From Candidatus Latescibacterota bacterium (GTDB taxonomy: Bacteria > Latescibacterota > UBA2968 > UBA8231): a stretch of 64,000 nt of DNA. Positions 17,377 through 58,877 of this stretch are shown here, one piece after another. Positions within the stretch are counted from its first letter, which is position 1; each line of letters begins with the position of its first letter. The notes under the pieces are model-generated. The model made no database searches and was not told where the DNA came from. It saw only the letters and a list, made by a program, of their open reading frames with translations. A program made the translations under genes and the position numbers. The stretch is from contig CBDETK010000013.1 in the NCBI GenBank assembly GCA_965242865.1, positions 352,001-416,000 of the forward strand. The letters are read 5' to 3'.

Positions 17377-19545
17377 CTAAGGCAGCTTGGTCGTCTTTTT
17401 CGCTTCCACCCGGCCTTCGATTTCGACGCGATAGATATACACGCCCGCGGCTACCGCCTTGCCTGCCTCGTCGCGCCCATCCCATACAAACCGATGGCTG
17501 CCCACCCCCAGCGGCCCCTCCCACACCTGCCGCACCCGACGACCCAGCACATCATGCACCCGCAGCGACACTTCCGTCGCGTCTGTCGCCAAATCGAGGG
17601 GCAGCACCACCGCCGGATTGAACGGGTTGGGATAGCTGTCGCCGAGCGAATGTTGCGCCGGGCGTGCTGCCGCCGACATCTGCACGGCTGTTGCAGTCGA
17701 AGCCAGCGAACTCTTGAGCAGATGGGCACCGCCCAAGATCGGATCCAACACCACCAAGTCGAGATCGCCATCGCCGTCCATGTCACCGGACAGCACGTAT
17801 CGCCCACTGCCGGTCAGCCGGTGCCGCTCGCCTTCTTGGGTCGGATTGACGCTCCCGCCCCATTCGACGAACACGCCAAACCCCGAAGCGCGGTCTCCGC
17901 CAATAAACACCCAGTCGTCCACCCTATCGGCGTTGAGATCGCGTATCAGCACCGGCGAGCGACGCAGCAGCCGATCATCATACAGCACTTCGGCTTCGAG
18001 GCGGTCTCCAGCGCCCTTGCGCTGCAAGACAAGCCCCTTGCTTCCTTCGAGTAGATCGGAGGTGAACTCAGTGAGTACATCCACCTGCCCATCGCCATCA
18101 AAATCGCCCACCCCTAACGGCTTCAACGCTTCACCGACCTCAAAGACCTCGCCCCGCTGAAACGCCTCGGGCGTGCTGTTTTGCAACCCCTCGTCCAAGG
18201 GAGACACAATCCACCCGCGCACCAGATCGCGAATCGGTCCCCAGAACACGGCTACGGTCCCATCGCCGGTAAAGTCGCCGAGGTGATAGGGCGTATATTT
18301 TTCGGAATACGCCACCTCCGCGGACGTCCACTCGCCCTGTTCAACCTCCCAGACCGCTAACGTGCTAAAAAACTCCGCCGTACCATTGAGCATATCGTCT
18401 CTTGTGCCATTATATGTAGCTCCCCCGACAAATAATTCGACCCGGCCATCGCCATCCCAATCGGCCACACTGTGAATCGAGCGGTCAATCTGCACGAGTA
18501 CCTCCACTTGGAGATCCGGGCCGATAGACCACACTTCAGTCGGCAGATCTTGGTTTGTTCCTATGGTTATCGCGATTTCGTCTTTACCATCGCCCGTTAA
18601 ATCAGCACCCACCGCCTCTAAGGACAACTGGGGGACGATTACACTTTCCATTCCCGCCTCGGTACTACTCCCCCTGATGGCCACTACTTTCTTAACAAGC
18701 CCCCGCTCCAAGGCCCCGCGCCCGTCATTGAGGGCCATCAGCCAGCCACTTTCAGGCTCAAGCTCCTGTTGCACTTTCGAGGGTGTGTCCCACAGACCAA
18801 AAAGGTCTAAGTCGCCATCGCCATCCAAGTCCGTCAACACGCCGCCCTTCCGCTCCCCTAGATACCCTCCTACATGAAATTCTTGCCCTGTGCCCGGCGC
18901 AATCGGATAGAACACCGGCGGCGCAAAAAGCCCGGCCCCATCAAAGCGAAAGTACTCTACCAGCGGCGGCGACCGTTCCCCCTGTAGTAGCTCTTCCGCG
19001 CCGGTCAACTCGATCCAGTCAATCTCAAACTTCTCCACTACCTTGGTATCCGAATCAGCCAGTATAAATTCTAGTATGATATTTTTTAACGGACCCTCCC
19101 AGCCGTCTCGATCCGCCACCGACAGCACCACTTCCTGCCACTCGGTGGTATAGACTACTTGTTTGAAAACGAGCGTCTCAAAAGAAGCTCTAAACCCTGA
19201 AGCGTTTTCCCACCCGAGCCCAAGCGTACCCTCCGTAGGGTCGTCATAGACGGTGCGGCAGCGAATTCGGACATAGTCGAACAGGCCCGAATCATACCCG
19301 ATAGCAGGAGAAACCAGTTCGCCTTGCGGCAGGGGGGACACAGCCTTAGTGGCCGAGGGATCGACCGTGATCTGCCATACGCTATCTTCGACCACCCAGG
19401 GAAAATGGTTAAATTCACGCGCACCCCGGATATGTTCTTTAGCGGACCACCCTTGCGTCGTCCCATCGTCGAACTCCCACCGAATCGCCACGGCGGGACC
19501 GCTCCACAGTACAAAGCCGACAACAACGGCGGCAAATTTCAGCAT
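17377..19545 (-). CDS. Secreted FG-GAP/VCBS + FlgD-Ig protein (paralogue 2, clade A)
   Basis: Same architecture; MLKFAAV start, FFSTLAVWE and EVAYSEKY clade markers. Confidence 0.88.
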   Translation of the reverse strand: MLKFAAVVVGFVLWSGPAVAIRWEFDDGTTQGWSAKEHIRGAREFNHFPWVVEDSVWQITVDPSATKAVSPLPQGELVSPAIGYDSGLFDYVRIRCRTVYDDPTEGTLGLGWENASGFRASFETLVFKQVVYTTEWQEVVLSVADRDGWEGPLKNIILEFILADSDTKVVEKFEIDWIELTGAEELLQGERSPPLVEYFRFDGAGLFAPPVFYPIAPGTGQEFHVGGYLGERKGGVLTDLDGDGDLDLFGLWDTPSKVQQELEPESGWLMALNDGRGALERGLVKKVVAIRGSSTEAGMESVIVPQLSLEAVGADLTGDGKDEIAITIGTNQDLPTEVWSIGPDLQVEVLVQIDRSIHSVADWDGDGRVELFVGGATYNGTRDDMLNGTAEFFSTLAVWEVEQGEWTSAEVAYSEKYTPYHLGDFTGDGTVAVFWGPIRDLVRGWIVSPLDEGLQNSTPEAFQRGEVFEVGEALKPLGVGDFDGDGQVDVLTEFTSDLLEGSKGLVLQRKGAGDRLEAEVLYDDRLLRRSPVLIRDLNADRVDDWVFIGGDRASGFGVFVEWGGSVNPTQEGERHRLTGSGRYVLSGDMDGDGDLDLVVLDPILGGAHLLKSSLASTATAVQMSAAARPAQHSLGDSYPNPFNPAVVLPLDLATDATEVSLRVHDVLGRRVRQVWEGPLGVGSHRFVWDGRDEAGKAVAAGVYIYRVEIEGRVEAKKTTKLP

Positions 19546-19590
19546 GGCATCACCGATCCTTCCAGCAGATAGCGTACCCCGTCAAAGAAA

Positions 19591-19625
19591 GAGGCCGGCT
19601 TAATCGCGATCATTAAACCGGCCTC
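19591..19625 (-). terminator. Stem-loop downstream of peptide gene (stabiliser or partial terminator)
   Basis: GAGGCCGGUUUAAU-loop-AUUAAGCCGGCCUC followed by UUUCUUU on the minus strand. Confidence 0.6.
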
Positions 19626-19632
19626 TTACGCC

Positions 19633-19908
19633 TTAGCAAACGCAGCAATACCAATGCGAACACTCGGCATTGCAGTTCGCATCCAGCCAACATGTCTTAC
19701 ATCTGCAATCCGGCTCGTTCGGGTTTGCCTCGCAACCGGAGCTGCCCTCCAGCACTGTCCATGGGGTGCCGTCGCAGGCTTTCGCTTCCTTGGCCCCGAG
19801 CAGGACGGCGATCCCCGTGAGGACGCTGATGACCCAACCGAGGGCCAACCCCTGCCGAGCCGGCACCAAGCCGCTCGACGATGCGAAAAACTCCCTCAAA
19901 TTCTGCAT
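19633..19908 (-). CDS. Cys-rich secreted peptide precursor (type I, 10 Cys)
   Basis: Conserved 44-aa leader ending AKEAKA; core CDGTPW...WYCCVC; AGGAG RBS. Confidence 0.85.
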   Translation of the reverse strand: MQNLREFFASSSGLVPARQGLALGWVISVLTGIAVLLGAKEAKACDGTPWTVLEGSSGCEANPNEPDCRCKTCWLDANCNAECSHWYCCVC

Positions 19909-58433: not shown

Positions 58434-58501
58434 AGCCTAGCTCCTTTGCAATAATGCAGCACCGGCAGATAGCGTCTTCGGAACGTTGAGAAGCGAGGCG
58501 G

Positions 58502-58534
58502 GAGCTGGCTCAATCGCGACGATTAAGCCAGCTC
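58502..58534 (-). terminator. Stem-loop downstream of peptide gene
   Basis: GAGCUGGCUUAAUCG-UCG-CGAUUGAGCCAGCUC. Confidence 0.6.
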
Positions 58535-58595
58535 ACTGCACACCTTAGCCTACCTCAGTAACACCCCTACAGCTTTGGTCAGTAGCTGTAGGGGT

Positions 58596-58877
58596 TTAAG
58601 CCGCGCAGTAACAAGGGTATCTCCTAAAGCTGCAGTCAGGGTACTCTCGAACTGGGCAGCAACTGAACGGCTTGTTCGCGTCTTTAGACGCGCAATAAGC
58701 ACTGTACTCGCAGTCTTCATAAGTGCGGTCACTGCACTCGTCGCCTGCCTCGCCTTCCTTGGCCCCGAGCAGGACGGTGATCCCCGTGAGGACGCTGATG
58801 ACCCAGCCCAGTGCCAAACCCTGCCGAGCCGGCACCAACCCGCTCGACGACGCGAAAAACTCCCGCAAGTTCTGCAT
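58596..58877 (-). CDS. Cys-rich secreted peptide precursor (type II, 8 Cys)
   Basis: Conserved leader ending AKEGEA; core GDECSDRTYEDC...KPFSCC...CYCAA. Confidence 0.85.
   Translation of the reverse strand: MQNLREFFASSSGLVPARQGLALGWVISVLTGITVLLGAKEGEAGDECSDRTYEDCEYSAYCASKDANKPFSCCPVREYPDCSFRRYPCYCAA

Follow-up and report, generated by a model that had tools for sequence, protein, structure and literature searches.

In the staphylococcal AgrD/AgrC and Bacillus ComX/ComP systems, neighbouring genes encode a small exported peptide and its binding protein, and the two have diversified jointly into discrete types. The colicin E–Im and CdiA-CT/CdiI systems combine a conserved delivery part and a hypervariable active part with an adjacent, co-varying binder, and they include extra partners without a cognate and possibly export of the complex. 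Bufferins, which are signal-peptide RiPPs, pair a Sec-type leader with a cysteine-rich core and use one enzyme set for many cores. Each of these arrangements has a likeness in the locus described here, which lies in a window of 64,000 nucleotides (the whole stretch of DNA analyzed) from Candidatus Latescibacterota bacterium and encodes small cysteine-rich peptides ahead of FG-GAP propeller proteins. In its seven peptide–propeller pairs, the most variable surface of the propeller protein is predicted to clasp the peptide, which suggests that one bacterial genus holds a family of matched pairs not described before.

The 7 peptides and 13 FG-GAP/T9SS-tail paralogs reported in a first-pass annotation of this DNA were all found where it had placed them, all on the minus strand, with a spacing of ~90–170 nt between peptide and partner genes. 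Operon 1 opens with the type IIb, 8-Cys peptide pep58596 (58596–58877), followed by partner F56289 (56289–58433; subclade B2), an FG-GAP propeller with a T9SS type A tail, and by F54097 (54097–56250), a second partner gene without a peptide of its own; a pseudogene remnant comprising fragments of a clade-C-like partner lies upstream (59261–59813, minus strand). Operon 2 opens with the type III peptide pep53165 (53165–53443) and continues with the clade C partner F50793 (50793–53018) and, as third and fourth genes, the subclade B2 partners F48557 (48557–50698) and F46413 (46413–48518), neither with its own peptide. Operon 3 opens with the type III peptide pep45469 (45469–45759), followed by the clade C partner F43098 (43098–45341), a DUF4159 protein (41593–42930), and a sigma-54 activator consisting of a Reg_prop/Y_Y_Y propeller, a Sigma54_activat AAA+ domain, and HTH_8 (38344–41571). 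The type Ia peptide pep37648 (37648–37938) precedes two clade A partners, F35260 (35260–37581), for which an internal MLKFAAV is the likely start, and F32986 (32986–35259; no peptide of its own); the accessory genes of operon 4 encode a TPR protein (31618–32544), a GT1-like glycosyltransferase (30098–31606), a transglutaminase-like protein (29136–30122), and a GT2 glycosyltransferase (27972–29108). Operon 5 opens with the type Ia peptide pep27222 (27222–27503) and its clade A partner F24870 (24870–27080). The type IIa peptide pep24494 (24494–24778), which starts ~90 nt past the F24870 stop, has no promoter of its own and is followed by its subclade B1 partner F22196 (22196–24334) and by F20001 (20001–22151), a subclade B1 partner without its own peptide. 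The 10-Cys type Ib peptide pep19633 (19633–19908), also without its own promoter, is paired with the clade A partner F17377 (17377–19545), and the outlier F15162 (15162–17291) has no peptide of its own. The ortholog of F15162 in genome G030 sits behind a type VII peptide.

A TGGCACN5TTGC sigma-54 promoter (−24 GG/−12 GC) was found five times versus 0.05 expected, and activator-type sites numbered 15, three for each promoter, versus 0.07 expected. One promoter, TGGCACGCAATTTGCT (59017–59032), with three CACGGAAAATCGTG sites at 21-bp spacing, occupies 59017–59211 on the minus strand, and further copies of this module lie at 53583–53776, 45899–46092, 38078–38271, and 27643–27836. The Sigma54_activat domain of the locus bEBP scored 234 bits and rpoN is present in the genome (424 bits; cut-off 277); by promoter, bEBP, and rpoN content, the five operons are classed as putatively sigma-54-dependent. 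Between pep37648 and its partner lies a GC-rich hairpin of 16 pairs with a pyrimidine tail (37556–37590, minus strand), and equivalent hairpins occur at 19590–19626, 24402–24428, about 27133–27165, 45374–45410, about 53083–53114, and 58502–58534. The annotation had counted six partners with no directly preceding peptide, and F15162, F20001, F32986, F46413, F48557, and F54097 are indeed such genes. It had read them as orphans like those of toxin–immunity arrays, a description that gains no specific support, as the six are downstream genes, in second or third place among the partners and peptides of five peptide-led sigma-54 operons or, for F46413, in fourth.

The partners are 700–770 aa long, with FG-GAP_3 matches of 41–70 bits (Pfam cut-off 26.9), FlgD_ig matches of 41–47 bits in all four partners scanned, and C-terminal TIGR04183 Por_Secre_tail matches in F17377 and F43098 of 25.0 and 25.2 bits, respectively (curated cut-off 23). 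In translation, their N-termini are hydrophobic, with an A-x-A end just before IRWEFDD. An AF2 apo model has a propeller fold (pLDDT 79.7), for which the best matches, galactose oxidase, CRTAC1, and integrin alpha, indicate a generic propeller only (TM about 0.3). The genome encodes the T9SS components SprA (482 bits; cut-off 200) and PorU (624 bits; cut-off 420), and a PorV-like gene adjoining PorU scored 147 bits, below the cut-off of 250. By tail and genomic machinery, the partners are thus predicted T9SS type A cargo.

In any pair of the seven window peptides, 39–43 of the 44 leader residues are identical, whereas the cores, with 8 or 10 Cys, are only 27–51% identical. Median dN/dS was 0.45–2.0 for cores, depending on type, and roughly 0.06–0.26 for leaders. 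The leader carries a full hydrophobic signal-peptide core, and its n-region is conserved far past the needs of Sec targeting. Cysteine spacings read from the translations define the types: C14C11C2C5C3C4CC in two type I peptides, with pep19633 a 10-Cys variant (C13C8C1C2C5C3C4CC1C); C6/7C5C10CC7C6/7C1C in type II; and C6C5C11C7C6C1C3/4C in type III. The two type II cores in the window share 39% identity and represent subtypes IIa and IIb, which are kept separate genus-wide. Long forms make up 22 of the 94 leader-bearing ORFs of the genus, and in the subset that we inspected a similar leader is followed by two or three Cys cores and a T9SS tail. Three peptides, one of each type, were compared with Pfam and NCBIfam and matched no family, toxin families included. 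The core fold had no Foldseek match at E ≤ 0.001 and a best Z of 2.9 in a wide VIA-align search. Laterosporulin, a defensin-like bacteriocin, was the only recurring core-fold lead, at low rank and non-significant scores (Foldseek E about 1–3; VIA Z 2.8), and we rejected it. All 116 peptide clusters that we found are unnamed or 'hypothetical', and the nearest ESM Atlas clusters are unnamed, with scores of 0.83 and 0.80 that fall under the trust level.

The central observation of the first-pass annotation, that peptide type matches the clade of the adjacent partner, proved exact for types I, II, and III (3, 2, and 2 pairs), which is 1 of 210 possible arrangements, and every partner motif that it quoted is present in the partners it named. 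When labels were shuffled 200 times on the tree of the window partners, five shuffles did as well as the observed type–clade fit. Clades A and C have support of 100/99 and 100/100, respectively. The assignment of type II to clade B stands insofar as both type II peptides precede partners so placed, but clade B as a single clade has support of only 61/73, and the IIa and IIb partners fall in separate subclades (F22196 with F20001, 98/96; F56289 with F46413/F48557, 100/99).

Random pairing in related genomes had been named in advance as evidence against specific pairs; across the 20 genomes that we checked, pairing was non-random. In a tree of 91 partners of the genus, peptide-type labels required 16 changes, compared to a minimum of 12 and a shuffled mean of 42.8, and 0 of 200 shuffles were as low. 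This tree contains the partner ORFs with an N-terminal HMM match, a W-x-F-D anchor, and a match reaching model position 500 (91 of 99), and so has 60 labelled rows for 70 flagged pairs, some paired partners being omitted. No recombinant between major types and no independent re-pairing was seen in this genus tree. Phylogeny alone therefore cannot reject co-inheritance of adjacent genes, and every type–clade link looks like one ancient event followed by co-inheritance, which fits co-duplication. All 20 peptide-bearing genomes have partners as well, and five genomes have partners without a detected peptide. Pairing is not strictly 1:1, as two different peptides stand in tandem ahead of one partner in two genomes. 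One Ib partner is nested within an Ia subclade of the genus tree, and in the second array of the window genome the two peptides most alike have first partners that do not group as sisters. A third locus of that genome has three partners without a peptide, one of them directly behind the same sigma-54 promoter. The window genome also keeps V-clade partners, with no type V peptide found in it.

All arrays of the window genome together hold 12 peptides and 31 full-length partners. Its second array repeats the regulator, DUF4159, TPR, and glycosyltransferase genes; all four of the TPR, GT1-like, transglutaminase-like, and GT2 proteins of operon 4 have homologs there, and the DUF4159 family also closes operons in two other arrays of the genome. 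There is one accessory set for each array, conserved in both arrays. The GT1-like protein, 502 aa long, resembles natural-product GT1 glycosyltransferases (CalG2, E = 1e-8), occurs in 19 of the 20 genomes with peptides but 0 of 5 partner-only genomes, and has orthologs that adjoin peptide arrays.

To the partners, the annotation had ascribed a homogenised C-terminal domain. That domain is uniform, but the uniform 3' part is larger and takes in the last propeller blades too. Nucleotide identity among cassette types is 92–100% in the leader and UTR and mostly 70–97% in the partner 3' third, compared to about 40–80% in the intervening core-to-partner stretch.

We predicted the complex of a single cognate pair, the core of the type Ia peptide pep37648 (residues 45–96) with the mature part of F35260. 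Three runs gave ipSAE values of 0.87, 0.85, and 0.88, whereas the best of three controls scored 0.00. Of 80 solved complexes, 58 attained the mark for this score, as did 2 of 110 mismatched pairs, and proteins closely related to a true partner pass it too. The model has 179–182 contacts and a partner pLDDT of 82, and the peptide is almost fully buried. Fold searches found no similar solved complex, and a pass owed to memorised structures is thus unlikely. Counted from the IRWEFDD start of F35260, the predicted cleft loops lie at positions 19–26, 107–119, 254–259, 299–310, 373–391, 416–419, and 435–438. Alignment columns at the predicted interface had an entropy of 2.36 bits (n = 66) versus 1.09 bits elsewhere (n = 546; p = 2e-18), and the values for coil residues only were 2.46 (n = 39) and 1.16 (n = 260; p = 3e-11). 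Among the 66 most variable partner positions, 32 belong to the predicted interface. Close window paralogs are 44–65% identical at the interface and 83–92% in the remainder. A clade-A-specific insertion and the motifs cited in the first-pass annotation lie within or adjoin this interface, and its loops are those with low confidence in the apo model. Type-specificity was not higher at the interface than at other variable columns (within-minus-between identity of 0.21 vs 0.25). Partial Mantel tests covered 39 pairs, those that combine an 85–105-aa peptide with a partner in alignment A2, and shared ancestry inflates such tests: for the 18 type I pairs, core distance tracked interface distance with the rest controlled (partial r 0.36, p = 0.007; reverse r 0.00), and for type IIb the result was reversed (0.00 vs 0.36).

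We lean towards the explanation that each peptide gene forms a two-gene cassette with its partner gene, and that binding between the two products underlies the co-variation. A sigma-54 promoter preceded by three activator sites would drive most cassettes. Their first gene would yield a ~95-aa precursor in which the conserved 44-aa N-terminus acts as an extended Sec signal peptide, presumably cleaved at its A-x-A-type end, and the freed ~50-aa core would fold with four to five disulfides. The predicted site of the core is a cleft that separates the N-terminal beta-sandwich from the top face of the directly downstream FG-GAP propeller. The fast-evolving parts would be the peptide core and the cleft-lining loops, and concerted evolution would keep the leader, the 5'UTR, and the partner 3' third (last blades and T9SS tail) nearly identical, so that the variable core and partner surface travel and diverge together. 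The partner may take the peptide to the cell surface by joint export, because, of the two, only the partner has a T9SS type A tail. Related proteins of the genus would do likewise in cis, with two or three such cores fused to a T9SS tail. The accessory set (GT1-like and transglutaminase-like proteins, GT2, TPR, and DUF4159) probably has either the invariant leader or the complex as its target. A broader proposal, which we regard as rather doubtful, is that this is a genus-specific, undescribed two-part surface system in which hypervariable, disulfide-rich, tail-less mini-proteins are clasped in the periplasm by a matching propeller and exported by T9SS in trans. Peptide and cleft would have diversified together into 10 or more specificity types, and a dedicated glycosyltransferase/transglutaminase-like set would read the leader; the outcome would be a combinatorial repertoire for display or recognition, which might serve interaction with a host or with neighbours.

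The proposal of cognate ligand–receptor pairs made in the first-pass annotation gains from the ipSAE of 0.87 versus 0.00, the hypervariable contacts, and the non-random pairing, all of them computational results. The same pairing could arise if adjacent genes were simply co-duplicated and co-inherited with no specific physical pairing, the partner loops facing some other external ligand. The short distance between the genes (~90–170 nt) fits such linkage, as do partner-only operons and genomes, the single mapping event behind each type–clade link, and an interface no more type-specific than other variable columns; moreover, the stretches through which recombination could run (leader/UTR and partner 3' third) lie outside the variable block, so core and partner would stay linked without selection. 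We nevertheless consider linkage alone unlikely, given the complex prediction of 0.87 against 0.00, the coincidence of predicted contacts with hypervariable positions, the type I partial correlation favouring the interface, and the presence of partners in 20/20 peptide-bearing genomes.

Binding could also serve another end. A bacteriocin-like core might be neutralised by the propeller, or the propeller might shield the producer at its surface, with orphans guarding against neighbours' peptides. Hypervariable cores with dN/dS up to 1–2, orphan partners, partner-only genomes, the V-clade partners lacking a type V peptide in the window genome, and laterosporulin as sole, non-significant fold lead would suit this reading; it appears quite unlikely given that no toxin or bacteriocin family matched, that exporter, lysis, and C39/ABC genes were absent among the window ORFs scanned, that known immunity proteins do not resemble a ~700-aa protein exported by the T9SS, and that a peptide predicted to be almost wholly buried resembles a subunit more than a releasable toxin. 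The annotation's analogy with polymorphic toxin–immunity arrays finds no specific support, on related grounds: Pfam and NCBIfam gave no toxin family match to the three peptides searched, the orphans are downstream genes of peptide-led operons, and what follows the peptide is an exported T9SS cargo of ~700 aa rather than a small intracellular immunity protein. Finally, shared enzymes could recognise the invariant leader and modify the variable cores before export, as in signal-peptide RiPPs, with the partner secondary, a logic compatible with binding for which the GT1-like/transglutaminase-like protein and GT2 are the candidate enzymes. A single accessory set for each array, conserved in both, the CalG2 resemblance of the 502-aa protein (E = 1e-8), a GT1-like gene that follows peptides (19/20 vs 0/5 genomes) rather than partners, and leader n-region conservation far above Sec needs all favour it, yet we hold it to be very improbable, as the hydrophobic signal-peptide core of the leader is complete, same-genus genomes are non-independent samples, and the window ORFs scanned against Pfam yielded none of the known RiPP maturase families (MNIO/DUF692, radical SAM, or lanthionine enzymes), a scan that covered the peptides and otherwise ORFs of at least 150 aa.

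If the pairs bind as predicted, the locus would be a natural library of small disulfide-rich binders with matched propeller receptors, diversifying inside one genome. It would also offer a testable bacterial case of peptide–receptor co-evolution, possibly the first T9SS cargo carrying a separately encoded subunit, and a role for two protein families that are now unannotated, with the conserved sigma-54 promoter/activator module as a handle for turning the system on. In full-text literature searches, neither such a system nor a T9SS cargo accompanied by a peptide from a separate gene turned up, and no paper combined FG-GAP, cysteine-rich, and type IX secretion. Compared to the bufferins, the window scans lack an MNIO/DUF692 maturase, and the accessory enzymes are glycosyltransferase-like and transglutaminase-like. 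Glycocins combine a GT2 S-glycosyltransferase with a double-glycine leader and a C39/ABC exporter; operon 4 has a GT2, whereas the leader here is Sec-like and the scanned ORFs contain no C39/ABC. Unlike colicin E–Im and CDI, the window peptides have no recognised toxin domain and a large, exported partner, the orphans lie in operons, and exporter or lysis genes were not seen. A highly conserved signal/pre-region, a hypervariable mature peptide, and a fixed Cys framework also characterise animal venom and defence peptides, such as conotoxin-like families and mussel MgCRP-I (PMC4558851); those peptides are eukaryotic and are not known to have an adjacent co-varying partner gene. With T9SS type A cargo, the system shares the TIGR04183 tail on the partners, and the long peptide relatives carry the tail themselves. 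AgrD/AgrC and ComX/ComP have no homology to this locus: their partner is a membrane histidine kinase and that of the window is a T9SS-exported FG-GAP propeller, and where those systems have one allele for each strain, here a genome holds many cassettes.

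The array lies on the minus strand (window 15162-59813) and holds 13 paralogous partner genes encoding proteins of 701-773 aa (F followed by the lower window coordinate) and seven genes for small Cys-rich exported peptides of 91-96 aa (pep followed by the coordinate), which are of types Ia (pep27222, pep37648), Ib (pep19633), IIa (pep24494), IIb (pep58596), and III (pep45469, pep53165). Each partner begins with a hydrophobic signal, continues with a beta-sandwich of ~190 aa that matched no Pfam family and with FG-GAP repeats (FG-GAP_3 at 41-70 bits in a Pfam scan), and ends in a FlgD_ig/TIGR04183 tail, the type A sorting signal for the type IX secretion system (T9SS). 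The peptides matched no family in Pfam or NCBIfam. They have 39-43 of 44 N-terminal residues in common, comprising a charged n-region, a hydrophobic stretch of ~18 residues, and an ending of the A-x-A type; the cores (47-52 aa, 8 or 10 cysteines) are only 27-51% identical. AF2 predicts a confident beta-alpha-beta-beta core fold (pLDDT about 90), for which a fold search returned no significant structural relatives. Among the 116 clusters of homologous peptides, none has a name other than 'hypothetical', and one NCBI record among the homologues carries the source label Gemmatimonadetes MAG. Remains of a clade-C-like partner, two fragments that are out of frame, lie just 5' of the first promoter (window 59261-59813, minus strand) and look like a decayed cassette. 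Directly downstream of the array are genes for a MotA/ExbB-like protein, an FHA protein, a PP2C phosphatase, and two Ser/Thr kinases, one with ankyrin repeats (window 7447-14633, minus strand).

The first-pass annotation had proposed that peptide type co-varies with the clade of the adjacent partner, and its seven pairings and every motif that it quoted were correct on re-checking. In a maximum-likelihood tree of the partners' variable part, clade A (F17377, F24870, F32986, F35260; support 100/99) and clade C (F43098, F50793; 100/100) are solid, but 'clade B' is weak as one clade (61/73) and divides into F20001 with F22196, F56289 with F46413 and F48557, and F54097; F15162 is an outlier. Type II peptides do pair with clade B partners but form two distinct genus-wide subtypes, IIa and IIb, whose window cores are just 39% identical. 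The perfect 3/2/2 match of types to clades is one of 210 arrangements; when labels were shuffled on the window tree, 5 of 200 trials did equally well. Co-variation of type and clade is genuine and genus-wide, as follows. Forty stretches from relatives plus the genome itself yielded 94 leader-bearing ORFs, with a partner directly downstream in 70 and with 22 long forms. Motif patterns assigned the peptides to types Ia (14), Ib (7), IIa (4), IIb (11), III (2), IV (7), V (6), VI (4), VII (2), and VIII (1), a second-array family (12), and fragments (2); elsewhere, type-III-like cores occur mainly as the first domain of long forms. A tree of 91 partners, built from N-domain and propeller columns, required 16 changes of peptide-type label, compared to a minimum of 12 and a shuffled mean of 42.8, and none of 200 shuffles matched this; thus, pairing in relatives, for which the annotation had suggested a tanglegram, is not random. 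Types IV (5/5), VI (3/3), III (2/2), and IIb (10/10, SH-aLRT 80) each mark one clade, IIa falls within a polytomy, and Ia and Ib occupy a single 27-row clade (support 100) that is partly mixed inside. The F15162 ortholog in one relative (G030; 89% identical) has a type VII peptide in front. In another (G019), a type Ia gene whose leader is interrupted in frame by a TAG, with an intact partner behind (L042:12808-13100), is probably a pseudogene.

Linkage alone might also keep peptide and partner together, and this main rival of cognate binding, although we consider it rather unlikely, agrees with several observations. The trees do not reject co-duplication, which had been named as the null explanation, and each type appears to have become linked to its clade only once, long ago. 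Nucleotide identity between cassettes that differ in type is 92-100% in the 5'UTR and leader, about 37-50% in the core, about 40-63% in the peptide-partner spacer, 66-86% in the partner's first ~150 nt, and mostly 70-97% in its last third, with a variable middle. Because highly similar DNA is confined to the flanks of the core-partner block, linkage would by itself hold core and partner together. Median dN/dS per type is 0.45-2.0 for the core and, in the same analysis, roughly 0.06-0.26 for the leader.

Complex prediction and interface variability, however, go beyond linkage. For one cognate pair, mature F35260 residues 1-612 (68-row alignment) with pep37648 residues 45-96 (57-row alignment), ipSAE was 0.87, 0.85, and 0.88, compared to 0.00 for the best control, with 179-182 contacts and a partner pLDDT of 82. 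The ipSAE mark was passed by 58/80 solved complexes and 2/110 mismatched pairs, rates that are only rough for this pair because our own alignments went into the prediction. The peptide is predicted to sit between the N-domain and the propeller top, at an interface that includes the clade-A insertion and the FFSTLAVWE and EVAYSEKY motifs of the first-pass annotation, and the apo AF2 partner model is disordered exactly in the interface loops. These contacts coincide with hypervariable positions: column entropy is 2.36 bits for the 66 contact residues and 1.09 for the remaining 546 (p=2e-18), or 2.46 versus 1.16 bits for coil residues alone (p=3e-11); 32 contacts are among the 66 most variable positions, versus about 7 expected; and those window paralogs whose identity elsewhere is 83-92% are 44-65% identical at contact positions. 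Across the 18 type I pairs, distances between cores follow those between interfaces once the rest is controlled for (partial r 0.36, p=0.007), whereas the reverse gave r 0.00 (p=0.53). Against cognate pairs, type-specificity was no higher in interface columns than in other variable columns (0.21 vs 0.25), the IIb Mantel pattern is opposite to that of type I, the first partners of two like peptides in the second array are non-sisters, Ia and Ib peptides stand in tandem ahead of one partner in two genomes, and some operons and genomes have partners only. On balance, cognate peptide-partner binding, for which the support is computational, is the best-supported reading and somewhat probable.

A ~330-nt nearly identical region precedes five peptides, which lead operons 1-5 (pep58596, pep53165, pep45469, pep37648, and pep27222, respectively). 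Within it lie a perfect sigma-54 promoter, TGGCACGCAATTTGCT (5 matches vs 0.05 expected), and three CACGGAAAATCGTG sites at 21-bp spacing (15 matches vs 0.07 expected). The genes for pep24494 and pep19633 follow the preceding partner's stop codon and have only ~95 nt of 5'UTR in common; both lack the promoter region. It follows from this operon structure that the six partners that the annotation rightly listed as having no preceding peptide are not orphans but second to fourth genes in five operons that begin with a peptide. Operon 3 includes a sigma-54 activator (Reg_prop/Y_Y_Y, AAA+, HTH_8) and a DUF4159 gene, and rpoN is encoded in the same genome. All seven peptide-partner spacers carry a GC-rich hairpin of 11-16 pairs and then a pyrimidine-rich tail (folding z-scores -1.0 to -5.1), which may act as a leaky terminator or stabiliser. 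The first DUF4159 codons (MRRAWKVPLRKNRTL...) are kept directly 5' of activator sites at window 27799-27960 (minus strand) and at G000:C13:493470-493560 (G000, this genome; C13, its contig); apparently, when the promoter module was copied, the 5' end of a DUF4159 gene either came along with it or received it.

Operon 4 continues with TPR, 502-aa GT1-like, transglutaminase-like, and GT2 glycosyltransferase genes, all four with homologs in the second array. The 502-aa protein resembles GT1 natural-product glycosyltransferases (CalG2, E=1e-8). Its ORF overlaps the transglutaminase-like ORF (328 aa) by 25 nt (window 29136-31606, minus strand); both parts form a single 830-aa protein in the second array and ~830-870 aa in the listed relatives, and the window copy is either split or frameshifted. 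Within the genus, the GT1-like protein occurs in 19/20 peptide-bearing genomes, 2/10 without peptides, and 0/5 with partners only, and its orthologs adjoin peptide arrays; this distribution, a lead rather than a statistical test because the genomes are kin, suggests putative leader-directed modification of the peptides. SprA and PorU exceed cut-offs in the genome, and a PorV-like gene adjoins PorU. The long forms are 200-344 aa (G000:C13:3194041-3194913 and 21 more ORFs in stretches L042-L081), and those read bear 2-3 Cys cores, a T9SS tail, and the same kind of leader. The leader therefore precedes T9SS-bound domains, and we infer that short peptides would be exported jointly with their partners.

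The genome has three further sites of the system. A second, divergent array (G000:C13:3155666-3205137) comprises 4 peptides, 15 partners, 5 DUF4159 genes, and homologs of the TPR, GT2, and GT1-like/transglutaminase-like genes, with a sigma-54 activator gene upstream; its leaders are homologous to those of the window, its partners are ~31% identical to the window's, and its long peptide (G000:C13:3194041-3194913, 290 aa) combines two cores with a T9SS tail of its own. A type VII peptide that stands alone (G000:C13:2271170-2271463, minus strand) has an 8-residue C-terminal extension and a decayed promoter (TGGTAC in place of TGGCAC; 1/3 upstream sites intact), and by orthology its likely partner is F15162, 1.9 Mb away in the window. 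The third locus (G000:C13:488964-497537, plus strand) has three partners of V- and VII-related clades and DUF4159 without a peptide; a full promoter module is followed, after ~30 nt, by the start of the third partner. Another copy of the sigma-54 promoter with a 5'UTR remnant (G000:C13:2312881, plus strand) leads not to a peptide but to a 994-aa ORF, which may be a further regulon member. A seven-peptide profile matched 20/30 other same-genus genomes, 0/6 from other genera of the family, and, weakly, 1/24 further genomes of the class; the partner N-terminal domain matched 25/30 genus genomes and 0/30 outside it. Partners occur in 20/20 peptide-bearing genomes and, with no peptide detected, in five. 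A shorter partner-like subfamily (~610-635 aa, N-domain 53-58% identical, about one copy per genome), also found in peptide-free genomes, may be the ancestral single-copy form (G012:C1:1519892, G021:C59:9369, and G027:C1:2178147 in relatives; own copy near G000:C13:177681-179510).

Full-text literature searches turned up no similar system in bacteria. Of the two kinds of pair that the first-pass annotation had inferred for the array, toxin-immunity pairs gained no specific support, and cognate ligand-receptor pairs are the reading best supported by complex prediction and interface variability.
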